Shown here piece by piece: positions 15,966 to 39,858 of a stretch of DNA of 64,000 bases. This DNA comes from an uncultured Methanolobus sp. (GTDB lineage Archaea; Halobacteriota; Methanosarcinia; Methanosarcinales; Methanosarcinaceae): contig OY776215.1 of NCBI GenBank assembly GCA_963675495.1, positions 576,001 to 640,000 of the forward strand, read 5' to 3'. The position numbers were made by a program, and so were the translations under genes. How positions within the stretch are numbered: position 1 is the first letter of the stretch; every line of letters starts with the position of its first letter. The notes under the pieces are model-generated. The model worked only from the letters and a program-made list of their open reading frames with translations. It made no database searches and was not told the DNA's origin.

Positions 15966-16041
15966 TGATTTGTACAGGTCTAAATTCTGATAATGAAATT
16001 TTAATTGGATCTATAAAAAAAGTTGTACGTTGGTGAAATAA

Positions 16042-17316: not shown

Positions 17317-17318
17317 GT

Positions 17319-19063: not shown

Positions 19064-19770
19064 AAGGAATAATACTTGCAGGTGGTACAGGCAGCCGTCT
19101 CTATCCCCTTACAAAGGTCACAAACAAACACCTTTTGCCAGTTTATGATAAGCCCATGATATACTATCCTCTGCAGACCCTCATAGATGCAGACATCAAG
19201 GATATTATGATTGTTTCAGGTCGGGGACACGCAGGTCACTTCTTGGAACTACTAGGCTCTGGAGCAGATTTTGGTGTGAAGTTCACCTACGAGATTCAGG
19301 ATGAAGCTGGTGGTATTGCTCAGGCACTTAGCCTTGCTGAGGACTTTGCTGACGATGATAACGTAACTGTGATTCTTGGCGATAATATCTTCCAGGACAA
19401 CATAAAGAAAGCAGTTCAGGAATTTGAGATGGGTGCTCATATTTTCCTGAAGCCTGTGACTGATGCTCATAGATTTGGTGTTGCTGAAGTTGATACTAAC
19501 AACGGATCTGTTTTAGGTATTGAAGAGAAACCTATTAATCCAAAATCTAATCTTGCAGTGACAGGGTTGTATATATATTCAAATGATGTCTTTGAAGTTG
19601 TGAAAACTCTCAAACCATCTGGCCGTGGTGAATTGGAGATTACAGATGTCAACAATGACTATATTCGGAAGGATGCGATGAAGTTCTCGATGATGGATGG
19701 TTATTGGAGTGATGCAGGTACATTTGAAAGCTTGATGAGAGCATCATTAATGATTGAAAGCAATAGATAG
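19060..19770 (+). CDS. rfbA: Glucose-1-phosphate thymidylyltransferase (short form)
   Basis: MKGIILAGGTGSRLYPLT, PSGRGELEITD; ATGA overlap with rfbD. Confidence 0.9.
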   Translation: MKGIILAGGTGSRLYPLTKVTNKHLLPVYDKPMIYYPLQTLIDADIKDIMIVSGRGHAGHFLELLGSGADFGVKFTYEIQDEAGGIAQALSLAEDFADDDNVTVILGDNIFQDNIKKAVQEFEMGAHIFLKPVTDAHRFGVAEVDTNNGSVLGIEEKPINPKSNLAVTGLYIYSNDVFEVVKTLKPSGRGELEITDVNNDYIRKDAMKFSMMDGYWSDAGTFESLMRASLMIESNR

Positions 19771-19794
19771 TTAAAAGCACAATGGGGAAACTGA

Positions 19795-21225: not shown

Positions 21226-21471
21226 ATTTTAAATGGATTATCCAAAAGTTGTTATTAGTATTAGCATGGAAAAGAAGATACGATTGAAAATCTTTAATTT
21301 TCAAAACATGTTACTTATTTAAACTATGAGATTAAGTAATTGACAATATGTCCACATATGGGTTAGTTGAATGCTTACAGAATTAAGATATGGATATACA
21401 ACTAATAGTAAATAAAGAAAAAATAGGATATTCAGAAGGTATTAATGTTCGCAAATTGAAAGCATTTAAAA

Positions 21472-23074: not shown

Positions 23075-23217
23075 TTAAAAATAATACAGATTATGTAATG
23101 GTTCTAAACAATGACACGTTTGTTGGTTCCAATTTTTTAGTAGAATTATTTAATATTGCAGAATCGGATTCAAAAATCGAAGTGTTGGTTCGAAAACCCA
23201 TTAGGCAGATTCAATTA

Positions 23218-24279
23218 TTATATTAAATCCACATCTTCAAGCATTCTTTGGACACGATTGACATACGTATGATCCCTATAAACTCTTTTTTGTCCCCTTT
23301 TAGCAATTTTTTCCCTTTCATCTCCATTTTCAATATAGTAATTAATTTTATCGAACAATTCTTTTTCAGTACTATAGCATTCGATTTCTGTTCCAATTTC
23401 AAATAAATCATTCAAACTCGCTTTATAGTCTATCAATTCAAATCCTCCTGAACCTAATATCTCAAAAGTTCTTGGATTTAAACCTTCAAGAGATTGAGAG
23501 TGATGCATATTTAAACATATTTTAGATTGATTATAAATGTTGTTTATTCGATTATAATCTATATCATAATTATTAATTTTAGATGATAATTTTTGTGTTT
23601 TTACTTTATAATTATAGTACGATAAAGGATTATACCAAGTCCAACATCTTGACCATATTTGCAAATTAAGATTCTCATTTAGAGAGCAAACATTATCCAA
23701 TAATTCTTTTCTGGCAGGATATAAATTGCCAATAAAAGAAATGTCAATAGATTGCTCTATATCTCCCTTAAGTTTGAAATAGCAATCTGGATCATATGCC
23801 ATTGGAAGAACCTTTGCTTCAACTTTATATTTCTTCAATTTACTAACATCTGAAGGTTCAAAAGTATAAAAATAGTCATATAGTTTAGCGCTGTTAAGTA
23901 TATTCTTATATCGAAAGGGACTATCATAGCACCAAATAACATGAGGAGATGAAGTTATACTTTTTATAGATTTTACTGTTTCTGGAAATAAAATATCTCC
24001 CCTTAATGTTAATATCAAATCAGGTTCAATTTTTTTTATTTGTTCAATTAGTTTCTTATTAAAATCGATAATTTCATTTCTCATAAATTTGTTCAATCGA
24101 TCAGTTTCATCCATTTTCATATGAAGAATCTGGGAAACAAAAGACTTCCATCTATAACCAACAGCAGAATACAAATCAGGCCAATCTAATAATTCAGTAG
24201 TATCTGCAAAACTATCTATTGCTTTAGTAATCATAGAATTATATGTATAAAATATAGGACCATTCACTAATATTTTCAT
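23218..24279 (-). CDS. CgeB/DUF3880-like glycosyltransferase (GT-B)
   Basis: DISFIG, IYNQSKICLN, NPRTFEILGSGGF, HTYVNRV. Confidence 0.85.
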   Translation of the reverse strand: MKILVNGPIFYTYNSMITKAIDSFADTTELLDWPDLYSAVGYRWKSFVSQILHMKMDETDRLNKFMRNEIIDFNKKLIEQIKKIEPDLILTLRGDILFPETVKSIKSITSSPHVIWCYDSPFRYKNILNSAKLYDYFYTFEPSDVSKLKKYKVEAKVLPMAYDPDCYFKLKGDIEQSIDISFIGNLYPARKELLDNVCSLNENLNLQIWSRCWTWYNPLSYYNYKVKTQKLSSKINNYDIDYNRINNIYNQSKICLNMHHSQSLEGLNPRTFEILGSGGFELIDYKASLNDLFEIGTEIECYSTEKELFDKINYYIENGDEREKIAKRGQKRVYRDHTYVNRVQRMLEDVDLI

Positions 24280-24288
24280 AATCTACCC

Positions 24289-26148
24289 TCATTCAATTTG
24301 GTATAAACTCAATCCATCATTATCATATATTTTGAAAACATATGAATCTCTTTCGAGTAAACTAAAGTCACTTGGAAGTAACCTCCAATTTTCTTCATAC
24401 TCAGGAAAAACTGTTTGATAAAAATACTCCATTTGTAAAGGTATAACCATATATCTTTTATTTTGATAATAATTCCCTAGGGATACATTGCTTGTATACC
24501 CAAAATGATATGGAATCATTGTGTTTTCGTTCCTAATATCATTTTTTCGTGCCGCTACGCCAAACAACATATCATGAAATCTATTTTGATTAGTACCTAA
24601 TTCTTGGATTAAGTAACCTTCATCTCCATAATCAAAAAGCCACTTAAACCCAGTTACTTCCATTTCAGAAATTTGATGATTAGATAATCTGGCGTGGGGG
24701 GATGGGTAGAAAGTAATAACTGACGTAAAGACGAATGATAAAATTATCATATAGGTACATAATAATTTAAAAGTTGTCATACAATCAATTTTCTCTACAA
24801 ATTCATGCACAGATACTAGGTTCTTTTGTGTAAATGACTGAAGACCCAGTCCAACTACAATCGTACCAAAAAACATTGCAAATTTGTAAACTCGCCAAAA
24901 ATCAATTATGAAATCATTGAAGAAAAAGACTATAGATAATAAAACAAAAAGTAAAAAGCAAAAAGAATACAAAAAGTGATAATAACTATAATTTAGTGAT
25001 TTTTTCTTTCTCAATATAATGGCTATAAAGTAAATAGAGAATATACCTCCAATTATACTCATGATGATAATTAATCCAAACTGAAAATATGCAATTTCTA
25101 GCAATTTTGAAAAAGGTAACGTAATTTGATTACTGATGCTACTATACATTTGATAATTTGATGATTCTGAGCCATAAAGTAAAGAACTCAAAGCACTTTT
25201 AAGACTTCCAATTACTGACGAAAATGAGAAATACCAACTAAAAAAAAGAATAAAGGAAACTATTATTGCATTCAATCCACCGAAACCTGGCGATAAATAG
25301 TTTTTATTTTGTGAAAACTGAATATTATTAGAATAGGTTATAGAAGTTATTAGAACAGCCATAAAAATAGCCATAAAAAACAATATAGTCACTGGATGAA
25401 AGAAAGTAATGCAAGCCATTGTAATGAATAGCAAAATACGGAATTCTACACAATTATATATATCAGAATATGATTTAAAAAATAAATATAGTGTGAATGG
25501 TAGCAATAAAAATGATTGAAAGCTTGGAACAAAAATTAATTCACTACCGCCGAATAATAAAATTGTAGATAAGTTTAATGCAAATACAAAAAAAATTCTG
25601 TTTCTGAAAGTAGTCTTCATTAGCAAGTAAATGGAAATCATATAATAGATAGAAAATATGACTGGCGTAATTAGTATTATTTTTTCAATATTCAAATTCA
25701 AAAAGTATGATAAAGAAGTAGCAAATATATGATCAAGAGGATAATAATTCGACCCAATGCCTGCTGTTTCCATTAAATCTCGAATAATTCCGATATGGGT
25801 TGGAGGATCTCCTCTGCCATAAGTATAATAGCCCCGAATTAAAGGTAGAAATAATAAAATAGCATTTGTTAGTAAAATTGCTGTATAACCATAAATCCAG
25901 TATTTATTTTTGTTAGAAAATAAAGATGTCCTAATAAGAATTAATTGTCCAATAGAAATCGATAATAAAATTGATAGCCAAAAATACCATGGATAGACTT
26001 TATAAATTGAGATTTCATATCCATTAATGTTAGAAGTTGTTGCAAGAATACATAGCGCAAATTGAATTAAAGAAAATGAAACGATGCATAAAATCTTATC
26101 AAGATTTTTATTTGGCAAAATTAATAAGTCAATGTTCATATTAATCAT
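24289..26148 (-). CDS. Polytopic membrane protein of glycan locus (putative polymerase or GT-C-fold enzyme)
   Basis: About 13 hydrophobic segments; loop motif GRGDPPTH, YYPLDH, FFHP; soluble C-terminus ending KIYDNDG. Confidence 0.7.
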   Translation of the reverse strand: MINMNIDLLILPNKNLDKILCIVSFSLIQFALCILATTSNINGYEISIYKVYPWYFWLSILLSISIGQLILIRTSLFSNKNKYWIYGYTAILLTNAILLFLPLIRGYYTYGRGDPPTHIGIIRDLMETAGIGSNYYPLDHIFATSLSYFLNLNIEKIILITPVIFSIYYMISIYLLMKTTFRNRIFFVFALNLSTILLFGGSELIFVPSFQSFLLLPFTLYLFFKSYSDIYNCVEFRILLFITMACITFFHPVTILFFMAIFMAVLITSITYSNNIQFSQNKNYLSPGFGGLNAIIVSFILFFSWYFSFSSVIGSLKSALSSLLYGSESSNYQMYSSISNQITLPFSKLLEIAYFQFGLIIIMSIIGGIFSIYFIAIILRKKKSLNYSYYHFLYSFCFLLFVLLSIVFFFNDFIIDFWRVYKFAMFFGTIVVGLGLQSFTQKNLVSVHEFVEKIDCMTTFKLLCTYMIILSFVFTSVITFYPSPHARLSNHQISEMEVTGFKWLFDYGDEGYLIQELGTNQNRFHDMLFGVAARKNDIRNENTMIPYHFGYTSNVSLGNYYQNKRYMVIPLQMEYFYQTVFPEYEENWRLLPSDFSLLERDSYVFKIYDNDGLSLYQIE

Positions 26149-26163
26149 TATTATAGCACATTG

Positions 26164-27330
26164 TCATAATTTATTTACCACAGTTTCATACATTTCTAGT
26201 GTCTGTTTGACTACTACATCTGGATGATACTTTTTAATAGCAGTTTCTTTTGCATTTTCACCAAACTTGAATCTTTGATTAGATTTTTCAAGCAGTTCTA
26301 TTGTATATTTAGCTATTTTTTCATAATCATTATTTTTTACAATATATCCTGTTACTCCATTTTCAACAACATATCTATTGCTATTAATATTAGAAGCAAT
26401 TACAGCTGTTCCTGATGCCATTGATTCTATTATTGACATTGGTTGCGTTTCCTGATGAGAGAGAAGATATACAATTGATGTCTTTCCATACAGATTGATA
26501 ATTTTCTCTCTCGAAACACTTCCTAAATATTCGACATTTGCAGTAATATTATTTTTAACAATAGCCTCATTTACTTTTTTTAAGTATATTTTATCAGAAC
26601 TACCAGTCATTATCAGTTTTACATCAGGTATTTTTTCTTTTACTATTTTAATTGCTTCAATTGCAGCCAATTGATTTTTTCGTTCAATGATTCTAGCAGG
26701 ATAATAAATTAAATTATTATCTTGTTCATTTATAGTATTTGAAAAGAAAACATCATCAATAGGATTATTTATCTGAAAAATGCTATTCATTTCATCGTAT
26801 AAATTCAATTCTTGAAGTACATCTATTACATAAGGGCTGATAGCAACGAAACCATCTAATTTTGGCAAAATTTTTTTTAATATAAGCATATTATAATCAC
26901 TATATAATATATGAGATAAAGATTTTCTAGCAAATTTCTTTTCAATATGGAACATCCCATGCAAGGTCAATACAATAGGAACTTCCATATCTATGATTTT
27001 AGTTAGTGCTGTGGGATAATGAGCATGTATTAAGTCGAAAGTATTTGACTCTATGAATTTTCTCACTATCACTGAATCTCCAAAAATCCGAGGTAAAAGA
27101 TTTAAACGTGCAAAATAATGCACTTGCACTTTAGGAAAATATTCGTGAACAAAACTATCTTTGACAGTACTATGGATAGTTAGTATAGTTATGTCTATTT
27201 TTTGATTAAGGCTCATGTTTTTGACAAGATTATACAGCACATTTTCAGGTCCTGCATTCGGGCTATTATTTGGCAATGGAAAATCTCCAATAAAACATAT
27301 TTTCACTAAATTCACCACACTATTTTCCAA
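26164..27330 (-). CDS. GT4 glycosyltransferase
   Basis: DLIHAH, LTLHG, ETQPMSIIESMASGTAVI. Confidence 0.88.
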   Translation of the reverse strand: MENSVVNLVKICFIGDFPLPNNSPNAGPENVLYNLVKNMSLNQKIDITILTIHSTVKDSFVHEYFPKVQVHYFARLNLLPRIFGDSVIVRKFIESNTFDLIHAHYPTALTKIIDMEVPIVLTLHGMFHIEKKFARKSLSHILYSDYNMLILKKILPKLDGFVAISPYVIDVLQELNLYDEMNSIFQINNPIDDVFFSNTINEQDNNLIYYPARIIERKNQLAAIEAIKIVKEKIPDVKLIMTGSSDKIYLKKVNEAIVKNNITANVEYLGSVSREKIINLYGKTSIVYLLSHQETQPMSIIESMASGTAVIASNINSNRYVVENGVTGYIVKNNDYEKIAKYTIELLEKSNQRFKFGENAKETAIKKYHPDVVVKQTLEMYETVVNKL

Positions 27331-27339
27331 AAACTGAAT

Positions 27340-28452
27340 TTATCCTAATAATTTAAAGTACTGATTAGAGATTTGATTGGCAACATTTTTCCAATCATAC
27401 CTATCCTTGATTTTTTGTTTATTGCATTTACTCATCATCATTCTTAAATTAGGATTTTCAATCAATTTAATAATCCGATTTGCTAATTCAAGATGATCTC
27501 CGGGAGTTATTAGGTATCCATTTTCCCCATCATCAATGACCTCAGGAATACCACCAACATGAGAGCTAATTACAGGCAAACCACTAGCCATTGCTTCCAA
27601 CATGGCTATTGGTAAGCCTTCGGCATACGAAGGTAACAAAAAAATATCAGATACCGCAAACAATTCATACTTTTCTTCATCACTTATGTTAGGTTTGACT
27701 GTAACGTAATCTTCTAATCCTAAGTCTTTACAAGTTTCTCTAAATTCATCAATTTGCCCTTTTACTTCTTCTGAACCCGCAAAAGTAAAGTGTACCTGTT
27801 TGTTCTTTTTGGTAATACTGTTTATAGATTTTAAAACATCATAAATTCCCTTTCTTTCAACAAGATTTCCCAAAAATAAAATATTCGTATTATCATGATG
27901 GTACTTTTCAATTTCTGTATTTTTATTGTATGATTCATATTTGGAGTAATGTACTCCATTAGGAAGGACAAAAATTTTATTTTCATCAACAATCTTCCTA
28001 AAAAATGATTCCCAACTAGATGACAAAACAATAACTGTATCAGCGCAATTTAGAAGATATTTTATCAATCCTTTTTTAAGATGGTTGCTATTATTATAAA
28101 ACAAATCAAATTTTGCTCCATGAACATGCATTATTGTTTTTGATCCAAATATTTTAGCTACGATTAAAAGGAGGGATTTATCCCAGAATGCTAAATAAGA
28201 AGATGTATGAATATGGACAATGTCGGGCTTTTCGGTGGCAAGTATCTGACTTAGCCTTGAGAGTATGTTTAAGGAAAGTATCAAGTTCTTGATGTTCGAT
28301 TTTTTAATTGAAAGATCTCTTGCAGTATTGAGATGCATAATTGAAAATCTATCTTTTATTTCTGAAGCTAACATATCCTCTACGTATGTTGAGATTCCTC
28401 CCATTGGGGGGGGAGTTGGTCCCACTATAAGAACAGATTTATCTTGGTTCAT
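27340..28452 (-). CDS. GT4 glycosyltransferase
   Basis: PPPMGGI, PSYAEGLPIAMLEAMASGLPVI. Confidence 0.92.
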   Translation of the reverse strand: MNQDKSVLIVGPTPPPMGGISTYVEDMLASEIKDRFSIMHLNTARDLSIKKSNIKNLILSLNILSRLSQILATEKPDIVHIHTSSYLAFWDKSLLLIVAKIFGSKTIMHVHGAKFDLFYNNSNHLKKGLIKYLLNCADTVIVLSSSWESFFRKIVDENKIFVLPNGVHYSKYESYNKNTEIEKYHHDNTNILFLGNLVERKGIYDVLKSINSITKKNKQVHFTFAGSEEVKGQIDEFRETCKDLGLEDYVTVKPNISDEEKYELFAVSDIFLLPSYAEGLPIAMLEAMASGLPVISSHVGGIPEVIDDGENGYLITPGDHLELANRIIKLIENPNLRMMMSKCNKQKIKDRYDWKNVANQISNQYFKLLG

Positions 28453-28535
28453 ATGAAATTTTCAACATCCTTATATAAGTTTTTAAAAATATGTTCTGCT
28501 AATTATACTGACATTTTTTATTTCACAATATAATT

Positions 28536-29891
28536 TCAGCTATTGTTATATACCTGCGAAATCACCACACGATGCTTTCCTGAAGGAGGAGTCTTAATCG
28601 AGTCCACATAATTGATATGAATCGTGCAATCGTCATTAAAATATTTGTACAATGACTTTTTAATAGCTTCTGTTACTTGCTCATTATAAGTTTTCTTCTT
28701 CACAAGCAACAGTTCTAACTTATCTATATGTGTTTGAATCACTTGATATTTTTGAATGTCTTTTTCAAACATCTGAAAAATATCTGGTATAAGTGTACTT
28801 GGAATTAATTTTCCATCTTTTGTAACTAAAATGTCATTTTTTCTTCCGACAATAGAATGAATTAATGGTAAGCTTCTTCCACATTCACATTTTTTGCTTG
28901 TAGGAATTCCTAAATCACCATTTTCATAACGTATCAAAGGCATGCCTAAATTTGTATAATCAGTAACAAGAATGCTACCTATCTCTCCATCATTCACTCT
29001 TTTTCCATTATTGTCTATAAATTCTAAAAATACATTTTCTATTGCAATATGATATCCTGAATGATTATCACATTCCTGTGCATAAGTGGCTTCTTTACTT
29101 CCATAATGATCAAAGACTTTACAGTTCAATTGTTTTTCTATTGTTTGTCGATAATGTGGATGTAAAGTTTCAGAATCTGAGATTGCAGAACTTACATTTA
29201 AACAAATATTATTATTTTCTAAGAATTTCGAAAATAAGTATAGTGATGAGGAATAACCATAGAGAACTTTTGGACTAAAATTTTTAATAGTTTCAGTATA
29301 TTCGGCAAATATCCGGTCATTAACTCCAAATGTTGGTAATCTTTTTTGTCTCATCAATTTTAGATAAGCTTTTGCTTGGATTTTTCTAAAAATTTCATCA
29401 TCATATAATGATGCAGTCAAACTAATCCACTTGTCACCAAAGAAATCTAAACCAGCCCACTCAAAAAACCTGTATTGTGCAGCTCTTACGTGTCCCATAG
29501 ATGCCTTGTCACGTGCAAACCTCAAAGGAATACCTGTTGATCCACCTGTAGTTTTATAGAGCAATTTACTTTTTGGAATATTTTGTGCTACAAGTGAATC
29601 AAAATTGTTTCGAATATCTTTTTTAGTTAATAGTGGAAGTTTTATTAAATCGTCTGTTGTTTTAATGTCAGCAGGAGTTAAGTTCAGTTCGTTAAATAAC
29701 TGATGATAATATGGTACATTTTTATATGCATGATTAATGAGAATACGAAGCCTTTTGTTTTGTAAGTTCTGAATTTGTGCAGGAGTGTACCATTGTGTTT
29801 TTTTCAGATATTCTAAGTTCGATAGTGTTTTCGTTCCAAAATATAATTCCATTAAAGGGTATATGCATTTTTTTAGTAGATAATCATACAC
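28536..29891 (-). CDS. Phenylacetate-CoA ligase family (CapK-like) adenylating enzyme
   Basis: HAYKNVPYY, TTGGSTGIP, HYGSKE, MPLIRYENGD, GRKND. Confidence 0.88.
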   Translation of the reverse strand: MYDYLLKKCIYPLMELYFGTKTLSNLEYLKKTQWYTPAQIQNLQNKRLRILINHAYKNVPYYHQLFNELNLTPADIKTTDDLIKLPLLTKKDIRNNFDSLVAQNIPKSKLLYKTTGGSTGIPLRFARDKASMGHVRAAQYRFFEWAGLDFFGDKWISLTASLYDDEIFRKIQAKAYLKLMRQKRLPTFGVNDRIFAEYTETIKNFSPKVLYGYSSSLYLFSKFLENNNICLNVSSAISDSETLHPHYRQTIEKQLNCKVFDHYGSKEATYAQECDNHSGYHIAIENVFLEFIDNNGKRVNDGEIGSILVTDYTNLGMPLIRYENGDLGIPTSKKCECGRSLPLIHSIVGRKNDILVTKDGKLIPSTLIPDIFQMFEKDIQKYQVIQTHIDKLELLLVKKKTYNEQVTEAIKKSLYKYFNDDCTIHINYVDSIKTPPSGKHRVVISQVYNNS

Positions 29892-30882
29892 GCATTATCC
29901 CTCCAATCAAATTGAAAAGAGTGCCCAATCCATACATTATATGTTGTAAAGGAATTATCAAAAGAGTTAACAATGCTGCAGGAGACTTCATTTTAAGTAT
30001 AACACTTAAAGTTGAGTGCAAAACTAAAACAATATAAATCAATGTGAGTGCTCCCAGTATCCATAAAAAAAAGATATATTTCAACGAAGCAATTAACGCA
30101 ATTATAGCAAAAACTATGCAACTAGCTGGTAAAACCGCATACCACCTTACCATGTCTTTGTGTTTTTGGAATAATTTAGTCATCCATGTTCCATACTTAA
30201 ACATCCTTATTGAAAAAGACTTAACATTCCCTCTTCTATGGTGCAAAACGATTGCTTCAGGAACATATAGAAAACGATAACCCTTCTTTCCAATTCTATG
30301 ATTAAGGTCACCATCTTGACCTATTACAAAACACTCGTCAAAGCATCTAACTTCTTTAATTATGGACTTTCTATATAGTGCATTACAATTTGGCAACGAT
30401 GGGACAAATTTCTTTTTAGAAGAATTATTAGCTTGGGCGGAACCGCCTGATCCTAAAAAAGTTTCCTGTGCATAACCAACAACCTTTGCAAATGTAGGGT
30501 CCGTATCAAAAATGAGATTTGGACCGCCAACACATGCTACATCTTCGGGAGCTTTTGTGATTTCCTTAATTAATGTTTTAAGCCAAAGTTTATCTGCTTT
30601 GCAATCTCCGTCTGTGAATGAGACAAAATCTCCTTTAGCTGCCTTTACACCAAGGTTTCTAGCAGCAGCAACGTTCTTTCTTTCATTGAGTATCAGTTTA
30701 ACGGGATATTTTTTAACGATACTTTGAGTATTGTCAGTGGACATCCCATCAACAATGATAATTTCATAAAGTTCTTTAGGGTATTCTTGGCTGAGAAGTG
30801 ATTCGATACATTCAACAATGTATTTTTCCTCATTTCTAATGCCAACTACAACTGAAACAAAAGGATATTCCACGTTTTTCAC
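29884..30882 (-). CDS. GT2 glycosyltransferase with C-terminal TM helices
   Basis: VSVVVGIRNEE, VDGMSTD, AARNLG, FTDGD. Confidence 0.9.
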   Translation of the reverse strand: MKNVEYPFVSVVVGIRNEEKYIVECIESLLSQEYPKELYEIIIVDGMSTDNTQSIVKKYPVKLILNERKNVAAARNLGVKAAKGDFVSFTDGDCKADKLWLKTLIKEITKAPEDVACVGGPNLIFDTDPTFAKVVGYAQETFLGSGGSAQANNSSKKKFVPSLPNCNALYRKSIIKEVRCFDECFVIGQDGDLNHRIGKKGYRFLYVPEAIVLHHRRGNVKSFSIRMFKYGTWMTKLFQKHKDMVRWYAVLPASCIVFAIIALIASLKYIFFLWILGALTLIYIVLVLHSTLSVILKMKSPAALLTLLIIPLQHIMYGLGTLFNLIGGIMRV

Positions 30883-30894
30883 CCACCCTGATTA

Positions 30895-31980
30895 TTAATT
30901 CTTAATCTCATTCACTAATCTAGTCATAGCATGCAAATTCAAAGCTGTAGACAACGCTAGCAATCCCAGAATGAACAATAAAACCATCAGGATTGATGGG
31001 CCAAAAGGTATGTAGCTTTCAGAATTATAATGTGAAAGAACAAACCATCCATCAATCAACCCTGCAAACAACATCAACAACCCAGGAACACCAATATAGA
31101 ACAAAGGATGCTTATACTCTATCTCAGTGATAACTCCAGCAAGCACCTTCATACCATGAACCACGGGGTTATGTGTTGATGTATCTTCAATGTCATACCT
31201 GCAACTGATAGGCACCTCTTCGACCTTCAGGTCATGCTCATTGACCTGTAACAGAATCTCCGATCCAGCTGACATACCACTATTTCCAATCTTAATCTTA
31301 TTGATGGCTGAATTAGAATAAGCCCGGAAACCGCTCTGAGTATCACTGAATTTCACACCACCACCATGATTTGTGGCAACATCCAAAACCTTCATACCAA
31401 CTGTACGGTAGAATGGGATATTCTCAGCCTTATGTCCTTCTAAAAATCTAGAACCTATAGAAACATCAGCTCTGTCAGCCAAAATAGGCTCAAGAACCTT
31501 CTTGATCTCTTCTGGATTATGCTGGCCATCTGAGTCGATTATTACCATTGCCCTAGCTTTCATACCTTTAGCTGTTTCGAAGCAAGTTCGTATGGCTGCT
31601 CCATAACCTTTGTTTTCGTCGTGGTAGACTACTTTGGCTCCGCAGGCTGTGGCTATCATAGCTGTGGCATCGATGCTGCCGTCGTTGACAACTACTACCT
31701 CGTCTACGTAGGGTTTGCAACCAAGAACTGTCTTTGCTATGTATTTCTCCTCGTTGAAGGCAGGCATTGCAGCTATTACTTTGCCTGACTTTGTAATATG
31801 ATTATGATTAGAAGCTTTTGTCTTAGAAACAGAAGCAAAGATATCCGATTCTTCCGGGATGATCTCATGTTCTTCTGTGCTTGAGGATTCAGGGGAAATA
31901 TCAGAAAGATGTCCATTACCAGGAGCATCAGAAAGAGTATGCTTAGTAGGAACTTTGGAGTCTATGATTTCAGAAGACAT
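30895..31980 (-). CDS. GT2 glycosyltransferase (polyprenol-phosphate glycosyltransferase-like)
   Basis: AMPAFNEE, VNDGSID, NKGYG, DSDGQH, DTQSGFRAY, two C-terminal TM helices; start at ATG 31980 (MSSEII). Confidence 0.9.
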   Translation of the reverse strand: MSSEIIDSKVPTKHTLSDAPGNGHLSDISPESSSTEEHEIIPEESDIFASVSKTKASNHNHITKSGKVIAAMPAFNEEKYIAKTVLGCKPYVDEVVVVNDGSIDATAMIATACGAKVVYHDENKGYGAAIRTCFETAKGMKARAMVIIDSDGQHNPEEIKKVLEPILADRADVSIGSRFLEGHKAENIPFYRTVGMKVLDVATNHGGGVKFSDTQSGFRAYSNSAINKIKIGNSGMSAGSEILLQVNEHDLKVEEVPISCRYDIEDTSTHNPVVHGMKVLAGVITEIEYKHPLFYIGVPGLLMLFAGLIDGWFVLSHYNSESYIPFGPSILMVLLFILGLLALSTALNLHAMTRLVNEIKN

Positions 31981-32077
31981 AACGCACCGCCCCTGACGAA
32001 CGCTGCTTCGCGCGGGCGATAACACTACCTATGGCTATCTCCTCATTGAATGCGGGAATTACAGCTACTGTCGTCAT
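31970..32077 (-). pseudogene. 35-aa N-terminal fragment of a second GT2 gene
   Basis: MTTVAVIPAFNEEIAIGSVIARAKQRSSGAVRYVF*, with GGTGG RBS; overlaps the start of the downstream GT2. Confidence 0.7.
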
Positions 32078-32419
32078 TGATCCAACCACCACTTTCCTTT
32101 GTGCTGCGCAACCCCCGGCATTTGAAAATGCATTCGGGCGCAGACATCAATGTATATATGAGTTACATTTATCCAATATACTGCTTAAAGATTGCTTATT
32201 GGATATAAAACTTTCCAAGTCATCATGTGAATTGTTTTATAAGTGATATAAAATATAACTAGTCGCATATATTTAGCAATTGTTCGCTTGTGTGCGAATG
32301 TTTAACAGTGTGAAAATGAGAAACATCGGAAGTACACCATACTAACAGATCAATTAATTAAAAAGACTGCGCTATGGATCAACCTATAAAAGGAAAAAAA
32401 GTCTCAGCCTGCTTATCCC

Positions 32420-32602
32420 TTATACTGGGACCTGACGCTGAGGTACAGGGAAATCAGTGAGAGCGTGAATATTATTGTCAAATGAATTGGATCTTGCAGC
32501 CAGGACACGGTATTTGCCACAGTAGGTGCCGCCGCCGTTCTCAGTGCAGGTCATGGATGTAGAACTTGCGTGCTCGCACTTGTCATAGTATTTGCATTTC
32601 AT
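32420..32602 (-). CDS. Small Cys-rich hypothetical protein (60 aa)
   Basis: MKCKYYDKCEHASSTSMTCTENGGGTYCGKY...; four Cys; GAGG RBS upstream. Confidence 0.6.
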   Translation of the reverse strand: MKCKYYDKCEHASSTSMTCTENGGGTYCGKYRVLAARSNSFDNNIHALTDFPVPQRQVPV

Positions 32603-32877
32603 TTTTGTTCCTCTATATAGCCACATTATTAGTAATATGTTATATAGTTTTTTATTTATAAATTTAGATTGTGGAACAAGTGATCTTCGAGGAATTATAG
32701 GATACATCTTAGGGTATTTGTGTGCATTGGTAAGATTTTTGGAAAAATGAAGGTGGTGTGGATACTTAGATGCAATACAACCATCCGCCGCATGCGGCAC
32801 GGTCCATTGTCACTGATATAGAAAGACATATGCAGGAGCAACGCAAAGTGAAGAATCAGAATGATAAAATCCTGAGT

Positions 32878-33164
32878 TTAACAACGGTTAAATCTTTGCC
32901 TTAATTTATCGTAAATCGAAGATCTATAATCTACAGCATAAAAAATAATATTGTGCATGACATCAATATCAAACACTATTCTGTATTTCCCCACCCTATA
33001 CCTATAATATTCGAAACACTGCAATTGCTTGGTATTAGCTGTAAAAGGATCAATTAAATTATGCACTCTATTGAACGAACGATCTTTTTGACATCAGCAG
33101 GATGCTTCTTACGAATTGCTTTTAAATCTTTCTTAATTAAAAACATTCGTAAAGATACCTTCAT
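32878..33164 (-). pseudogene. RelE-family toxin, frameshifted
   Basis: MKVSL...IKKDLKAIRKKHPADVKKIVRSIE in one frame, then DPF...YRYRVGKYRIVFDID...RSSIYD in another. Confidence 0.75.
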
Positions 33165-33167
33165 ACC

Positions 33168-33347
33168 TCATTCTAATCCAAATTCATCTTTGAGCTCTTT
33201 AAGAGTACAAACATTGCCTTCTTTAAGATCTCTTTTTGCTTCCTCGATGCGTTTAATAGTCTTTGAGCTCAAAGGCATAGAGTCAACATCAGTAATTGTA
33301 GAACAAGATCTTTTCGTTTTAGAACATGGATGAGTATTTAGAACCAT
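33168..33347 (-). CDS. Putative antitoxin (59 aa); not in the ORF track
   Basis: C-terminus LSSKTIKRIEEAKRDLKEGNVCTLKELKDEFGLE typical of archaeal RelE-partner antitoxins; stop lies 3 bp before the RelE ATG. Confidence 0.65.
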   Translation of the reverse strand: MVLNTHPCSKTKRSCSTITDVDSMPLSSKTIKRIEEAKRDLKEGNVCTLKELKDEFGLE

Positions 33348-33689
33348 TTATATACAATATCTCATGCACACTTAAATAAGTAGTACCAAAAATGGCTCTT
33401 TAGAAATCTCCAATATTCGAACTTCTCAGCGGTTCGTATTTTAAGAAGGTAGCAAATTTATCTTTCCGACCTGCTAATTTAAGCTTTATTGTCGTAACAA
33501 TTATTGTTTAAACAATAATACGTAACATCTACCAGAATAGATTTACGACGTAGCTATGAACTATCAGGAATACAACGCAACCACCCCGCAAAAGGCGGCA
33601 CATTCCGACACCATAAAAGAACAGGACAAAACCGATATCCCATCAAAAATAGACCCACAAAAACATTTCCAGCTCCAAATACAAAAGAA

Positions 33690-33953
33690 TCAATATATTA
33701 CATCATGGTGATCATAATCAAGTATCATGATTGCTTTTTTATCCGCATCTATTTCATAGATCAGCACAAATGAAGAGTCAATATGTACCCTCCTTGCACC
33801 GTGCAGATCACCACGTAATGGTTTATAGTGATACGGATTCAAGATTATCTGTTGAACTTTCTTGCTGATAATATTCATCTGCTTAGGATTCTTTTTAGCA
33901 AGCTTCATGAATTTCTTATCAGCAAGCTCGGATACAACAACGCAATACTCCAT
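33690..33953 (-). CDS. RelE/StbE-family toxin
   Basis: NPYHYKPLRGDLHGARRVHIDSSFVLIY...YDHHDVIY; homolog of 10436-10699. Confidence 0.87.
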   Translation of the reverse strand: MEYCVVVSELADKKFMKLAKKNPKQMNIISKKVQQIILNPYHYKPLRGDLHGARRVHIDSSFVLIYEIDADKKAIMILDYDHHDVIY

Positions 33954-33958
33954 TATGT

Positions 33959-34177
33959 TTACCCGTAGCGTTCAGAAAAATCACTTACATGGACAAATTT
34001 ACCCTTCCTGATATTGTCAAGTTTTTCCAGGTATTCCTGACTTGCTTCCGGTTCCCTGGATATTACACTCTCCATGAACATCTGTATCTGTTTGCTCATG
34101 CTCATACCATGTGATTTACACAGGGCAGAGAACTCCTTATATGTATCTTCATCCACATTGAAAGTCTTTAATACCAT
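33959..34177 (-). CDS. Ribbon-helix-helix antitoxin
   Basis: MVLKTFNVDEDTYKEFSALCKSHGMSMSKQI RHH pattern, upstream of RelE. Confidence 0.78.
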   Translation of the reverse strand: MVLKTFNVDEDTYKEFSALCKSHGMSMSKQIQMFMESVISREPEASQEYLEKLDNIRKGKFVHVSDFSERYG

Positions 34178-34193
34178 TGAGATCACACCAATT

Positions 34194-34268
34194 ATTTAAT
34201 ATTTAATAATCTTATTTAATGTTTAATAACATTATTTAATCATATTTAATCATATTTAATCATATTTA
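34194..34268. promoter_or_regulatory. ATTTAAT iterations, including (ATTTAATCAT)x3, upstream of the RHH-RelE pair; putative autoregulatory operator
   Basis: Six ATTTAAT heptamers plus one GTTTAAT directly upstream of the antitoxin start. Confidence 0.45.
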
Positions 34269-34499
34269 CCCCCATACATATCAAGTTTTTTCAATTGATC
34301 AAAATGATATAGATCATTTAAACTTTGTAGAAAGATTCTACTTTAAATAAGCTGCAATACAACCATCCACTGCAGGCGGCACTATCCACAATTACTGCAA
34401 AAAAGAAGATATATAGCCTGCTGATCAAAGAACGATCTCCAGCATTATCAGCGTATTTTCCATAACACATAAATAGTACGGAATTAAATCATAATTATT

Positions 34500-35930
34500 A
34501 TGTTCCGTAATTTCATTAATCGTGTCCATGAACTGGAATTCCTTAACAGGGAATATAGTTCAAAAGATCTTTCTTTCACCGTCATCTACGGACGCAGGCG
34601 AGTAGGCAAAACAGAACTTATCCAGCAGTTTGTGAAAGACAAGCCCCATATCTTCTTTCTGGCGGACATGAGAGGCACACGATCCAATACCCTCAGATTC
34701 AGGAAAAAAGCTTCAGGCTTATTCGATGATATAGAACCTGCAGCAGAGGCATTTGATGATGTGTTCGAATACATAAGTAAAAAATGGAAAAGTTCCAAAA
34801 AGCTTGTCATAGTTATCGATGAGTTCTCCTATCTGGCACAGACCGATAGATCCATACCGTCAGTATTCCAGCTTATCGTTGATGAGATACTCAAAGGAGG
34901 ACATTTCCATCTGATACTCTGTGGCTCATCCATTTCCATGATGGAAAAAACAACTCTTTCCCATTCAAGTCCTCTTTATGGAAGGAGGACAGGACAGATC
35001 AAGGTCATGCCACTGAGTTTACGCCACATGACTGGTTTTTCCCCGGAATCAACACCAGAAGAGCTTTTAAAAATATATGGTGCAACTGGAGGAATTCCTT
35101 TCTACCTCAGATTCTTTGATCCTGGAAATGATCTTTATGAGAACATAGGACAACACATATTTTCCAAAGATGCAGTATTATATGCCGAAGGCGAGTTCCT
35201 TCTTCGCGAAGAATTGAGAGAGCCGGCAACTTACATGAACATCCTTTATTCCATCTCCAAAGGTAGCACAAAAGCAGGAGAGATCGCTGCTGGCGCTTTC
35301 ATTGAAACAAAGGATCTATCATACTATACAGATACTTTGATGAGGCTTGGCTTTATCAGGAAAGAGCACCCTGTTGCAGAAAAAACATCTACCCGTAAAA
35401 CGATCTACGTTATAGATGACCCTTTTCTGCGCTTCTGGTTCAGATATGTACTGATACATAGAGATTCCATAGAAGCAGGTGATAATTCGCATGCCATCCA
35501 GGACCTGGATAAGAGCTACGACCGTTACCTGGGGGAAACGTTCGAACAGGTATCCAAAGAGATCCTTACATACCTCAATTTACAGGATAAACTCCCTTTC
35601 AGGTTCAGATCCATAGGCAGACAATGGGGAAAGATACCTAATATACCAAAAGGTAAAAATGACTATGAAATTGACCTGGTGGCCCTTGATCAGGATTCAA
35701 AGAACATACTCTTCTGTGAATGCAAATGGCAGAAGCAGAAGGTCAATACAGATGTCTACTTCAACCTGAGAGAGAAAGCGTGTCATGTAAAGTGGTTCCC
35801 CGAGAGAAAAGAACACTTTGCACTTATCAGCAGATCGGGTTTCACAAAAAAGATGCATGAAATAGCAAAGCAGGAGAATGTTCTGTTACTTACCCTGCAT
35901 GATTATTTGTCCAGATCTTCTGCTGAATAA
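34500..35930 (+). CDS. Archaeal AAA ATPase with C-terminal DUF234/PD-(D/E)xK nuclease-like domain
   Basis: FINRVHEL, YGRRRVGKT Walker A, IVIDEF Walker B, LYGRRT, EIDLVA...FCECKW. Confidence 0.9.
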   Translation: MFRNFINRVHELEFLNREYSSKDLSFTVIYGRRRVGKTELIQQFVKDKPHIFFLADMRGTRSNTLRFRKKASGLFDDIEPAAEAFDDVFEYISKKWKSSKKLVIVIDEFSYLAQTDRSIPSVFQLIVDEILKGGHFHLILCGSSISMMEKTTLSHSSPLYGRRTGQIKVMPLSLRHMTGFSPESTPEELLKIYGATGGIPFYLRFFDPGNDLYENIGQHIFSKDAVLYAEGEFLLREELREPATYMNILYSISKGSTKAGEIAAGAFIETKDLSYYTDTLMRLGFIRKEHPVAEKTSTRKTIYVIDDPFLRFWFRYVLIHRDSIEAGDNSHAIQDLDKSYDRYLGETFEQVSKEILTYLNLQDKLPFRFRSIGRQWGKIPNIPKGKNDYEIDLVALDQDSKNILFCECKWQKQKVNTDVYFNLREKACHVKWFPERKEHFALISRSGFTKKMHEIAKQENVLLLTLHDYLSRSSAE

Positions 35931-35983
35931 GTTCAAGAATACAACCTCACTGCAAAGGCAACACATAAAAATAATATTGTGCA

Positions 35984-36044
35984 TTACGACTAAAAGGCGT
36001 AAGGGTAGAGAAAGCCCACGCACTTTAGTCATGGGAGCAGTCAC
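35984..36044 (+). mobile_element. Miniature IS200/IS605-type end remnant
   Basis: Two imperfect hairpins, TTACG-ACTAAAAGG-CGTAA and CCCACG-CACTTTAGT-CATGGG, ending GCAGTCAC as in IS605-family right ends. Confidence 0.5.
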
Positions 36045-36265
36045 AACCTATCAATTCATGCGTTGTTGTCATAACAATTATTGTTTAAACAATAATAAGT
36101 AACATCTACCAGAATAGATTTACGATGTATCAATGAACTATCAGGAATACAATACAACCATCCGCCGAAGGCGGCACGGTTCACAATTACTGAAAAAAGA
36201 TGAGTTATAGCCTGCTGATCAAAAAATATATATATATAAAAAATAAAAAAAATAATCAAAGGAAC

Positions 36266-36862
36266 TCAAAACATTATCTTTGCCTTTATCTGAGCTAATT
36301 CATGTTCTATTGTTGAGATCCTCTCGTCAAGATGAGACCTGAAATCATCCCTGTTCAACCGAACCTCGGATGCTATTTCTGTTCTGTTTTGGTCAATCTT
36401 TTCACCAACCACATCGATCTTATCACCCAATCCATCGATCTTCCCACTTACGACTTCGACTTTACTGCCAACCGAATCAACCCCATCACCGACCCTGTCG
36501 ATCTTCTGCCCGAGATTCGAGTTCATTTCACGCATATACCTCACAGCTGCATCCATTCGCTCATAAGTTGCTGTGGTCAGATCCTCGTCTCTGACTATCT
36601 CAAATGTACCATACTCGCCAGTTGCTTTTGTGTAGACTACATCGATATTCGTTACACGTATAGGATATTGAGTGATGTTGACTTTTTCAAGTAACTCCCT
36701 GATGCTGCCCTCTGTACCCTCACAGACAACTTGCACCGTGCCATCATCGAGATTTTTGACATATCCATTAAGAGCCAGATCAAAAGCTATTTCGTCAATG
36801 AAATCCCTGAAACCTGCTTTCTGAACTCTGCCATGTATTATGACCTCTGCACGCTTCTTCAT
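36266..36862 (-). CDS. Acylphosphatase-domain protein with C-terminal coiled-coil/heptad repeat tail
   Basis: GRVQKAGFR, GYVKNLDDGTV; tail with KIDRVGD/KVEVVSG/KIDGLGD/KIDVVGE repeats. Confidence 0.85.
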   Translation of the reverse strand: MKKRAEVIIHGRVQKAGFRDFIDEIAFDLALNGYVKNLDDGTVQVVCEGTEGSIRELLEKVNITQYPIRVTNIDVVYTKATGEYGTFEIVRDEDLTTATYERMDAAVRYMREMNSNLGQKIDRVGDGVDSVGSKVEVVSGKIDGLGDKIDVVGEKIDQNRTEIASEVRLNRDDFRSHLDERISTIEHELAQIKAKIMF

Positions 36863-37015
36863 AAGAGTTGATTTTTCCTGAAGCAATATAAACGTTATTA
36901 TCATATCTCATTAACAAGCCAGAAATAATCACAGAACTTAAACAACCACCCGCCGCAGGCTGCACACACCATCACCAAAAATGTAAAAAGAAAATCCGGA
37001 GAATAGTCTTTGCCC

Positions 37016-38275
37016 TCATTCAAGCAACCATTTCCACACAGGCCTAACACTTATTTTCCTGCCATCCATTTCAAGCGCTTCCTCCGTATCTTCCGTGAGT
37101 ATGAGACCTTCTTTCAGCCCGTACTTATCCATAGCTTCCAGAAGTCCTGCTATCTCTCTTTTTTCATTTGACCATTCCATCCTCTGAGTAACCTGTATTG
37201 CTTTTATGATATGTCCCTTCTCCATCAATATGAAATCACACTCATTCTTATCCACGTGGTAATAGATATCATGCCCCCTGTTTTTCAATTCAAGGAATAC
37301 AATGTTCTCAAGTGTTTTGCCTGTATCCTTTGAGAATTTGAAGGCAAGAACGTTCATCAGTCCTGTATCTATGATATAGGCCTTCTTCTTTGAATATATC
37401 TGCTTTTTAAGAGAGTAATCAAAAACATTGATCGTAAAGATCAGATAAGAGTTCTCCAGATGATCTATGTAATTTTTCACTGTTGTCTGGCTGCCAATTC
37501 CTAGGACGTTCTTTAACCTGTTATAGCTTATCTCAGTTCCGGGATTAGTTATCAGATAATACGCAAGGGATCTTATTGCAGTCTCGTCCTTAATACCATA
37601 TCTTGCGATAATATCCCTGTACAGGATGTTATCATAGAGGTTCCTGATTATGTCCTTATTTCCGTATTTATAATACTCTGGAATGCCGCCATTTTCAAGA
37701 TACTGACTGAATTCTTTTTTGATCCTTGCTCTCTCCTCTGTCAGATAAAACTCCTTTTCAGTTTCTATGCCTTTTGAACCCATCAGCTCTTTGAATGAGA
37801 AAGGATAGAGTTCAAGTTTCACATGTCTTCCGGTAAGCTTTGTCCCCAGCTCCCTGCTCATCAAAGAAGAATTTGAGCCGGTGATGTAGAATTTGAAACC
37901 CCGGTCATACATCCGCCGTATGAATGCTTCCCAGTTGGGTATGTTCTGTATCTCATCAAAGAAAAAGACCTTGCTCTCTTTTGATGTTTCCAGAAATGAT
38001 TCATACAGGGCATTGAAATCGCCTACTTTGAAGTCAAGCAACCTTTCATCTTCAAAATTCATGTAATATATGTTATCTTCCGGATAGTATCTTTTTTTTA
38101 TCTGTTTTAAAAGGGTGCTTTTACCCGCACGTCGCAGACCAGTGATAACCACTATATGAGGAATTTGGGAGTAACTTTCTATTTCTTCAAGCTTCTGGCG
38201 CTTTATTGTCGGCACCTCCATTTCAAACTCCTGCTTTTGCTCTGCTATAAGCTCCTTTATCTGCATAATATCCAT
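37016..38275 (-). CDS. ATP-binding protein (AAA_14 + DUF4143)
   Basis: GLRRAGKST, FFFDEIQ, TGS, LTGR, IDTGL, LENIVF, ECDF; start uncertain. Confidence 0.9.
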   Translation of the reverse strand: MDIMQIKELIAEQKQEFEMEVPTIKRQKLEEIESYSQIPHIVVITGLRRAGKSTLLKQIKKRYYPEDNIYYMNFEDERLLDFKVGDFNALYESFLETSKESKVFFFDEIQNIPNWEAFIRRMYDRGFKFYITGSNSSLMSRELGTKLTGRHVKLELYPFSFKELMGSKGIETEKEFYLTEERARIKKEFSQYLENGGIPEYYKYGNKDIIRNLYDNILYRDIIARYGIKDETAIRSLAYYLITNPGTEISYNRLKNVLGIGSQTTVKNYIDHLENSYLIFTINVFDYSLKKQIYSKKKAYIIDTGLMNVLAFKFSKDTGKTLENIVFLELKNRGHDIYYHVDKNECDFILMEKGHIIKAIQVTQRMEWSNEKREIAGLLEAMDKYGLKEGLILTEDTEEALEMDGRKISVRPVWKWLLE

Positions 38276-38577
38276 AAATTGCATTCTGTGATGAATGCAT
38301 ATATATATTTCCATTTAAAATGGAGATTATTACTCACAAATTGTCATTGATAATGGAGATTATAGCAATGATATCTCCATTTAAAATAGAGACATTGCAC
38401 TCCAAAGTACATTATACGAAAAGTCTATGAACGCATATCGACCAAAACCATCCCGCTGCAGGCGGCACAGTCCATCAATACTGTTGTAACAAGAATGTAT
38501 AGATATTCTCTAGGCAATGTTGCAAAGAAAAAAGAACATAAACACATGTGATCAGTTATGATCTTTATTGCATCCAT

Positions 38578-39858
38578 TCACTCAAGCAGCCATTTCCACA
38601 CAGGCCTCACGAAGATCTTCCTTCCATCCCTTTCGATCATATCTTCAGTATCCTTTGTAAGTATGAGACCTTCCTCCAGATCATAGGTCTGCATTGCTTC
38701 ACGTAAACCTTCGACCTCACGTTTTTTGTTGTCCAGGTTCAGCTCCTTTGTCACCTGAATAGCATTGGTTATTTTATTATCTGCTTTTATCAGAAAATCG
38801 CACTCATATGTACCTTTATGGTAGTAAACTTCGTTCTGTCTTCTTATAAGCTCTATAAAGATCAGGTTTTCAAGCAGTCTGCCGTAGTTCTCTGAGAACT
38901 TGAAAGACACTGCATTTATCATACCAGTATCAAGGCAGTATATCTTCTTTGGATTTGCAAGTTGTTTCCTGAGAGAATAATCAAATTTTTTGATGGAATA
39001 TAATAAGTATGAGTCTTCTGCGTAGCTCAGGTACTCTTTTACCGTATCTGCAGATATTTCCAAGACATTTGCTATGCTGTTGTAAGAAAAAGGCTTGCCA
39101 ACATTTGAAATAATGAAGTATAGCAAGTTTATTACATCCCTGTTATTCCTCAGTTTATGTGGAAAGATTATGTCTTTCAGGTATATGGTCTCATAATAAT
39201 TTTTTAAAAGCTCTTCTTTGATGTCATTGTCCCCTTCAAGAGAGATCCGGGGGAAAGAACCATGCTTGAGATATTCCTCGAACTCCAGTTTTTTCTCACC
39301 GGATGTCAGCCTTTTGAGTCCTTTGAAATCCAGATATTCTTTAAAGGTTAGTGGAAAGACCGTTACTGCAAGGTATCTTCCTGAAAGACGTGTGATGGTC
39401 TTCTTTTTAAGTAGGGATGATGTGGAACCCGTCAATACAAATTTCAGGCGCTTGTCAGTATCGTATAATATTTTCAGTGTCTGCGTCCAGTACCTGAAGT
39501 TCTGGACCTCATCAAGAAAAATGTAGTATCTTTCTTTTTTCGTTGCCGCGATATGATCTTCAATGATACCCGAAAGAAGAACGGCACTCTCTGACCTGCT
39601 CTGGAACACCGGTTCATCAAGGTTTATGTAAAGTACCGACATGGCCTCGTTTTCAGGCAGTTCAAGACTGCTGATAAGCTGGTATATGAGAGTTGACTTG
39701 CCCGTCCTTCTTGCACCAAGTATTAGCAGTATCTCTTCCGTACCCATATATTTGGCTAAACGTGGATAATAATGAAGACGAGGTATACTCGTACTGTAAC
39801 TTTTTCCGAACCACCCCGGATTCTGCTTTTCCAGCACTTCTTCGATCAGTTGTTCCAT
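38578..39858 (-). CDS. ATP-binding protein (AAA_14 + DUF4143)
   Basis: GARRTGKST, IFLDEVQ, LSGR, LDTGM, LENLIF, ECDF; paralog of 37016-38275 (both end RPVWKWLLE). Confidence 0.9.
   Translation of the reverse strand: MEQLIEEVLEKQNPGWFGKSYSTSIPRLHYYPRLAKYMGTEEILLILGARRTGKSTLIYQLISSLELPENEAMSVLYINLDEPVFQSRSESAVLLSGIIEDHIAATKKERYYIFLDEVQNFRYWTQTLKILYDTDKRLKFVLTGSTSSLLKKKTITRLSGRYLAVTVFPLTFKEYLDFKGLKRLTSGEKKLEFEEYLKHGSFPRISLEGDNDIKEELLKNYYETIYLKDIIFPHKLRNNRDVINLLYFIISNVGKPFSYNSIANVLEISADTVKEYLSYAEDSYLLYSIKKFDYSLRKQLANPKKIYCLDTGMINAVSFKFSENYGRLLENLIFIELIRRQNEVYYHKGTYECDFLIKADNKITNAIQVTKELNLDNKKREVEGLREAMQTYDLEEGLILTKDTEDMIERDGRKIFVRPVWKWLLE

Follow-up and report, generated by a model that had tools for sequence, protein, structure and literature searches.

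Few small modules of archaeal genomes move and multiply as much as toxin-antitoxin pairs and 'archaeal ATPase' genes do, and we know of no mechanism so far for the mobility of archaeal toxin-antitoxin modules. In some bacteria module mobility is accounted for by integrons, the attC sites of which carry paired R''/L'' and L'/R' boxes. On plasmids of Acinetobacter, small pdif modules, toxin-antitoxin pairs included, are bounded by short recombination sites and the housekeeping recombinase is encoded elsewhere, whilst certain miniature inverted-repeat transposable elements (MITEs), such as the Correia-type elements, contain a stable internal hairpin. Archaeal integrons with canonical attC sites have been reported from 75 metagenome-assembled genomes in nine phyla (Ghaly et al. 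2022, PMC9668308), in the main text of which there is no mention of Methanolobus, Methanosarcin* or Halobacter*. The subject of the present analysis is a stretch of 64,000 nt from an uncultured Methanolobus sp. (genome G000; assembly GCA_963675495.1, contig OY776215.1, positions 576,001 to 640,000), referred to here in its entirety as the window, in which copies of a 22-nt motif separate toxin-antitoxin and ATPase modules in two arrays. At 36046-36223 a single motif copy joins the left flank of one motif site to the right flank of the next, and this we regard as a genuine recombinant joint within a cassette array, recombination at the motif being likely. No earlier description of the motif was found in the literature on repeats and toxin-antitoxin systems of Methanolobus and the Methanosarcinales.

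The repeat consists of a 22-nt core, AACCATMCGCCGCAGGCGGCAC, extended by about 5 nt on the left and by 15-33 nt on the right. The core forms a hairpin with a stem of 4-5 bp and a 3-nt loop that is mostly GCA or GAA, and GNA loops have a special stability in DNA. There are 10 copies in the window at up to 3 mismatches, compared with none expected (100 shuffles), and 16 in total when degenerate copies at 33579 and 35942 are counted, of which the minus strand carries eight (6555-12810) and the plus strand the other eight (32779-40010); over the whole genome 11 of 16 matches at up to 4 mismatches fall in the window. As in integrons and in clusters of attC sites lacking integron-integrases (CALINs), co-oriented repeated sites separate single-module cassettes, toxin-antitoxin cassettes have their own promoters, content and order vary between related genomes with breaks at the sites, and many such arrays are without a neighbouring integrase. 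However, a conserved 22-nt core with a 4-5 bp hairpin stands here in place of an imperfect attC hairpin of 55-140 nt, there is no IntI or tyrosine recombinase nearby, the sites form two divergent arms around a gene cluster with genes in both orientations, and the core also occurs in a MITE-like element. When 15 sites (96-98 nt) were folded as single-stranded DNA, 13 gave only the core hairpin, of 3-5 bp, and no attC-like long stem recurred among the 15 (z-scores -2.12 to +1.18). CALINs lack an adjacent IntI by definition, so a missing IntI alone does not exclude a CALIN, but because there is neither a neighbouring integrase nor an attC-like fold we do not regard the array as an integron. Small modules with short bounding sites are common to this locus and to pdif/Xer elements, and a system of that kind would fit the absence of a linked enzyme. 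A dif site has two 11-bp arms and a 6-bp spacer (Cortez et al. 2010, PMC2958812), whereas the perfect inverted arms here are only 4-5 bp long with 3 nt between them, and the motif at the joint, read as dif, has 11-nt arms matching at 7 of 11 positions around a 3-nt spacer and is thus not of dif type. The sites are, moreover, direct repeats, without the alternating orientation of pdif.

The features that surround the joint, from the first motif of array 2 onwards, are the following.

32779-32800, plus strand: motif m0, the first of array 2
32801-33578, minus strand: cassette X1, with a frameshifted ParE-like toxin and a small upstream open reading frame (ORF) (32878-33347), followed by what is left of the 5' end of a DUF234-type ATPase pseudogene and its promoter
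33469-33577: left flank, copy A (L110), with a perfect 20-nt palindrome ATTATTGTTTAAACAATAAT (33500-33519) and the degenerate ATPase gene start
33579-33601, plus strand: motif A, a 23-nt variant, AACCACCCCGCAAAAGGCGGCAC
33690-33953, minus strand: ParE/RelE toxin (PF05016, 30.5 bits, cut-off 23)
33959-34186, minus strand: RelB-like antitoxin (PF04221, 20.3 bits, just under the cut-off of 22.4)
34361-34382, plus strand: motif B
34383-34429: right flank, copy B (R47), after motif B and before the DUF234 ATPase gene
34500-35930, plus strand: ATPase_2 + DUF234 ATPase
35942-35964, plus strand: probable degenerate motif, left box AATAC retained
35965-36155: cassette X2, a deleted copy of X1, comprising a 21-nt piece and left flank copy C (36046-36154)
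36156-36177, plus strand: motif C, the chimeric joint
36178-36223: right flank, copy C (R47'), after motif C
36266-36904, minus strand: acylphosphatase-domain protein, its C-terminal half repetitive

The sites of motifs A, B and C were compared in a three-way alignment of 33440-33680, 34300-34470 and 36017-36260. An earlier note on this DNA had claimed that the 89 bp left of the joint were nearly identical to those left of motif A; the match is real and longer than that, 33469-33577 and 36046-36154 agreeing at 95 of 109 positions (with the motif, 88% over 125-126 nt by BLAST, E 3e-39 and 1e-39; 118 nt at 87% in a repeat search). The match of some 46 bp to the right of the joint with the right side of motif B was borne out, with 40 of 46 positions identical and a single 1-nt gap (with the motif, 86% over 78 nt, E 4e-19), and in a search of the whole 2.87-Mb genome the right flank alone matched nowhere but at these two sites (90.7% over 43 nt, E 1.7e-6). 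The RelE module does lie between sites A and B, its toxin above the family cut-off, and RelB and RelE are adjacent small genes on the same strand, 5 nt apart, as in type II toxin-antitoxin pairs. Site C tracks site A up to ...GGAATACAA (36147) and tracks site B as soon as the motif ends, from 36178 onwards. As its 22-mer differs from both, at 4 positions from A and at 3 from B, the switch may lie anywhere in 36147-36177, with no finer placement, which puts it on the motif, where the crossover had been proposed. Between the two flank homologies at the joint there is exactly one motif, with no bases extra or missing. The flanks are not common to most copies, the left flank being present at 2 of the 16 motif copies in the window and the distal right flank likewise at 2 of 16.

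The explanation that we favour, and to which as a whole we give about even chances, is that the joint arose by motif-based module exchange in a cassette array, in which modules would be gained, lost and reordered via crossovers in the core or at its margin. There would then be two copies of a segment L110-motif-R47, one (33469-34429) with RelBE and two motifs and the other (36046-36223) with one motif. As to the direction of the event, we infer that the segment was duplicated first and that RelBE was then lost from one copy by recombination between the two direct motif copies. In the relative G024 the arrangement L110-motif-RelE is present at 83% identity over 387 nt, which suggests that the filled state is older than the internal duplicate of G000 (87%) and so favours loss of RelBE over a site that was never filled; insertion of RelBE into the other copy would be less likely than loss for the same reason. 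Divergence is equal on the two flanks, 95/109 and 40/46 both amounting to 87% identity, which fits the expectation from one duplication.

The wider layout of the window bears on whether modules are exchanged in this way, and its remaining parts are these.

6555-12810, minus strand: array 1, eight copies (6555, 7932, 9022, 9439, 10076, 10787, 11732, 12789), with HicB-HicA, MNT (with a HepT remnant), two unnamed intervals, HicA-HicB, a ParE-like pair, MNT-HepT and HepT-MNT as modules
13086-32025: centre, with radical-SAM, dTDP-sugar, glycosyltransferase and flippase-type genes, a DDE transposase gene (21532-22959) and GC down to 0.28-0.31
36944-36965: motif E, followed by an AAA_14+DUF4143 ATPase gene (37016-38314, minus strand) and motif F (38447-38468)
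38578-39858, minus strand: second AAA_14+DUF4143 ATPase
39989-40010, plus strand: motif G, the last copy, with a YdjM-family gene next, at 40085

The two arrays thus stand on either side of a low-GC glycosylation cluster of about 19 kb with one transposase gene, with argG on their left side and YdjM-family genes on their right side. All eight copies in array 1, all eight in array 2 and all eight in locus L016 of the relative G008 are co-oriented, as are those of 5 of the 6 other multi-motif loci among 35 named loci; a convergent motif pair was seen in a single case, L045. Most intervals between adjacent motifs hold one module each, and over both arrays these comprise HicAB twice, MNT/HepT three times, a ParE-like pair, RelBE, a DUF234 ATPase, two DUF4143 ATPases and the acylphosphatase-domain protein, with two intervals that have no family match. 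The MNT-HepT cassettes at 7319-7921 and 11788-12608, both in array 1, are paralogous (87% over 467 nt), and one copy abuts HicBA without a motif between them, so the motif there was either lost or never present. A scan of the window with Rfam at gathering thresholds and a tRNA scan gave nothing.

G000 was compared with a set of 35 relatives and with metagenome contigs, duplicate fetches of the same DNA (L002 and L014, L003 and L015, L004 and L013, L016 and L058) having been removed before counting. Modules present or absent with their ends at motifs were found between genomes. Six structural differences had usable breakpoints, and three of these have both ends at a motif or within 31 nt of one, one has one end there and two have none; the share of the array sequence within 31 nt of a motif is about 9.5% by our own arithmetic. 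Firstly, G001 and G016 carry L110-motif-YdjM flank at the orthologous site, homology of G000 to them ending where motif A ends, at 33601, and resuming at 40041, 31 nt past the last motif, so that G000 has an extra 6.4 kb with six modules where G001 has 75 unmatched nt. Secondly, the block 36944-38468, a DUF4143 module, is 91.5% identical over 1536 nt to a block in G008 where the context is different and the neighbours are unrelated, with homology running from 4 nt before motif E to about 6 nt after motif F. Thirdly, metagenome contig X1 (25 kb, about 96-97% identity) carries some 1.7 kb of additional sequence between 38427 and 38449, by the left edge of motif F. There is also a difference in order between G000 and locus L055 for the HicAB cassette and the cassette at 9044-9392, and G016 has the same layout of minus-strand copies, centre and plus-strand copies with a shrunken centre. 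With the same cassette in different contexts and breaks at the sites (the DUF4143 block, the motif A site and the order in L055), we regard the array as behaving like a cassette array.

A number of observations weigh against the favoured explanation. The other three structural differences are less tidy: contig X1 has 266 nt in place of 36864-38273, with neither end at a motif; contig X2, from a second metagenome, joins 36863 to 38453, inside motif F, with a single end at a motif; and G001 is without 13067-33232, again with neither end at a motif. In one interval of array 1 two modules stand side by side without a motif to separate them. The motif site has neither the long fold of attC nor the arms of dif, and its core lies within a MITE-like element elsewhere, so it could be a passive repeat. 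Pfam scans of 50 window ORFs found no recombinase gene, no tyrosine recombinase stands beside the arrays examined in G008, G012, G013, G002 and G001, and the ten ORFs examined that flank the arrays of G008 and G016 include no recombinase. The product of a dedicated recombinase would equally be expected from ordinary recombination between two direct repeats of 22 nt. Finally, because identity is 87% and homology extends no further than 109 nt leftwards and 46 nt rightwards, we read the joint as an old duplicate and not as a recent empty allele, and with that identity and 46 nt on the right the conclusion that both flanks are of the same age would be a weak one. The earlier note had taken the joint for the empty site before insertion or after excision of the module, and this reading is supported in part: the chimeric structure with its switch on the motif stands, whilst the age of the duplicate and a left match that can be explained without any RelBE event leave the empty site itself less certain.

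That last point leads to an alternative, which we consider unlikely, in which two unrelated coincidences would have produced the joint: the ATPase cassette would have been copied whole with both of its motifs and then decayed, and R47 would be a longer right-extension variant found at two sites. It is also among the reservations about the empty-site reading that 32779-33601 corresponds to 35942-36177, the two having in common the left motif, a 21-nt piece (35967-35987 and 32941-32961, 95% over 21 nt) and the 109-nt right end, with the second copy heavily deleted; the left-flank match thus suggests copying of a whole cassette with both bounding motifs, and taken alone needs no RelBE event. On the right, the first 15 nt of R47 (TCCAnnnTnACTG) are part of the repeat at most motif copies, and about 33 nt of the right extension are weakly common to the copies at 32779 and 38447. 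Array 1 offers a parallel in the copies at 10076 and 10787, which have the motif and a 23-nt right extension in common (95.7% over 46 nt) and unrelated left flanks, and what follows R47 is unrelated at the two sites, namely the promoter of the DUF234 gene at B and the 3' end of the acylphosphatase gene at C. However, the distal 30 nt of R47 (..TATAGCCTGCTGATCAAA) occur in G000 at sites B and C only and in none of the 35 relatives searched, which is not as expected of a site variant in general use, and an exact 18-mer scan of metagenome contigs for R47 gave 21 loci, all of them unrelated chance matches without an adjacent motif. Homology of the DUF234 gene region with relatives begins only at 34457, so R47 lies outside the conserved upstream region of that gene. 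The equal divergence of the two flanks also tells against coincidence. Metagenome run X6 yielded short near-identical pieces over the stretch and no joint among them, and parts of the stretch that X1 and X2 leave uncovered carry no information; the metagenome comparison was one of assembled contigs only, in which rare excision products or circles would not show.

Aligned with its relatives, the left flank comprises the promoter region and first codons of a minus-strand ATPase gene of which G024 (474 aa) and G016 (484 aa) have full-length versions and G000 a remnant, its start codon degenerated as judged by eye from the alignment; G001 has this remnant too, at 87.6% identity. The motif follows the ATPase promoter at a similar spacing in seven sequences (A, C, G001, G016, G024, G002 and G012) and is degenerate or absent there in two (G042 and G008). 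The palindrome ATTATTGTTTAAACAATAAT, at 33500-33519 and 36077-36096, stands about 20 nt upstream of the DUF234-type ATPase gene start and is kept with small changes in at least seven Methanolobus genomes (loci L003-L009); it is likely to be an operator of this ATPase family.

Outside the window the motif is confined to a narrow lineage. At up to 2 mismatches it was found in 18 of 24 relatives of the same genus with no control hits, and in none of 16 genomes from other families of the same order; 33 of the 35 exact-match loci in named records belong to Methanolobus or Methanosarcinaceae. No compensating stem changes were seen among the motif copies listed, and a core that is kept as sequence across the genus without such changes suggests that the motif is recognised by a protein. 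As a short, extragenic, GC-rich palindrome that is multicopy and lineage-restricted, it resembles repetitive extragenic palindromic (REP) sequences, and it has in common with REP sequences, bacterial interspersed mosaic elements and the REP doublets (REPINs) served by REP-associated tyrosine transposases (RAYTs) the conserved flanking bases, the restriction to one genus and a copy number of a few to more than 100 per genome. In contrast to the REPIN-RAYT system, the copies are co-oriented singles and not inverted doublets, and there is no Y1 transposase in G000, G009 or G019. Matches to the Y1 family (PF01797) occur in 20 of 36 genomes, unrelated to motif counts, and there are none in G000, in G009 with 56 motif copies, in G019 with 21 or in G001. 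Machinery of the RAYT/IS200 type was ruled out for G000, which has neither a Y1 transposase nor TnpB.

The multiplication of the motif is most extreme in G006, where 133 copies are dispersed over the chromosome. The 20 of these that were sampled align over about 350 nt, as an element of some 175-346 nt with terminal inverted repeats (CTCTGTAGAAATCCTG / CAGGATTTCTACAGAG), the motif sitting in a sub-unit of about 175 nt; just 1 of the 20 has a homologue of a window cassette gene next to it. The G006 element (L017-L036) also contains, besides the motif, a second conserved double hairpin (..GCCGGCTTCGCCGGACCCTTCGGG..). As in hairpin MITEs, the core in a sister species thus sits in a short non-coding multiplied element with terminal inverted repeats, whereas the array copies of the window lack both the arms and the terminal repeats. 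The G000 genome contains one near-complete element copy, at genome position 1471472-1471707, and 22 matches to the MITE terminal repeat, many of them from another short element family. The DDE transposase of the window, which lies at 21532-22959, was weighed as a candidate parent of this MITE and rejected, none of the 22 terminal-repeat matches being in the window.

It is these data that bear on a further alternative, also improbable in our judgement, that the motif is a passive dispersed repeat, either a MITE core or a REP-like palindrome, that has accumulated in a permissive toxin-antitoxin island, where ordinary homologous recombination or replication slippage would produce the rearrangements with no dedicated system. 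The dispersed G006 copies, the sampled ones all inside the terminal-inverted-repeat element, and the near-complete copy in G000 are in its favour, as are the lack of a linked recombinase and the breakpoints that fall away from motifs. However, the array copies of G000 match only positions 85-139 or so of the 346 in the element profile (one up to 176) and have no terminal repeats, so neutral decay would have to strip both arms from every array copy and yet spare the core. Random insertion would not yield two sets of eight co-oriented copies with one module per interval, and homologies of 22-29 nt are short for efficient homologous recombination.

If modules are exchanged at the motif, it is necessary to ask what enzyme might be responsible. 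There are six tyrosine recombinases (PF00589) in G000, at 248, 484, 495, 498, 862 and 2353 kb, and these are its only recognisable site-specific recombinases; all lie outside the window, which starts at 576 kb. No serine recombinase was found in G000, and G002 has one tyrosine-recombinase match genome-wide. Because the copies are co-oriented, because the intervals hold about one module each and because the sequence of the 22-mer itself is conserved, we lean slightly towards a sequence-specific enzyme acting in trans over general short-homology recombination. The fullest form of motif-based exchange, possible but offered here as a tentative and rather doubtful proposal, would be a gene-cassette capture system of Methanolobus, not previously described, in which an enzyme encoded elsewhere carries out crossing-over at the conserved 22-bp mini-hairpin core, toxin-antitoxin and ATPase modules are stacked and shuffled in two divergent arms around a surface-glycan cluster, and a proliferating MITE has acquired the same site. 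A housekeeping tyrosine recombinase is one candidate for the enzyme of such a system, and the DUF234/DUF4143 AAA-ATPases that dominate the array are a conceivable other, the DUF234 and DUF4143 domains being ones that we take to be assigned to the PD-(D/E)XK nuclease clan. If true, the capture system would give the toxin-antitoxin modules of Archaea a means of moving. Such modules are bordered here by a short, defined site that is conserved within a single genus of methanogens and occurs in filled and empty states within and between genomes, and the 22-mer offers a concrete and testable handle in a culturable genus. The arrays form the variable flanks of a surface-glycosylation cluster and may bear on phage-host dynamics.

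There are several minor observations on the window. The glycosylation cluster carries its DDE_Tnp_1 transposase gene (21532-22959) in the portion of lowest GC (0.28-0.31). In G001 (L014) the whole 20-kb glycosylation cluster is missing and 12873-13066 is joined directly to 33233-33601; since G008 runs unbroken over 33233 (33137-33341), the absence looks like a deletion in G001. A small cysteine-rich ORF without a Pfam match (MKCKYYDKCEH..., 32420-32602, minus strand) is kept just inside the array start in G008, in two copies, and in G016. A conserved region at 32031-32800 was considered as a 'platform' of array 2 and dropped, as it holds just this ORF without a family match. Directly upstream of the RelB gene, the promoter region at 34191-34260 has at least three repeats with a 20-nt period (ATTATTTAAT..), which probably form an antitoxin operator array. 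Three palindromic copies of ATATTTCCATTTAAAATGGAGA, spaced 33 nt apart, lie at 38305-38395 upstream of the DUF4143 ATPase gene at 37016-38314 and resemble an operator. The C-terminal half of the acylphosphatase-domain gene contains a repeat with a 21-nt period at 36384-36506, corresponding to 7-residue repeats with a weak DUF1664 match, and this is an unusual fusion.

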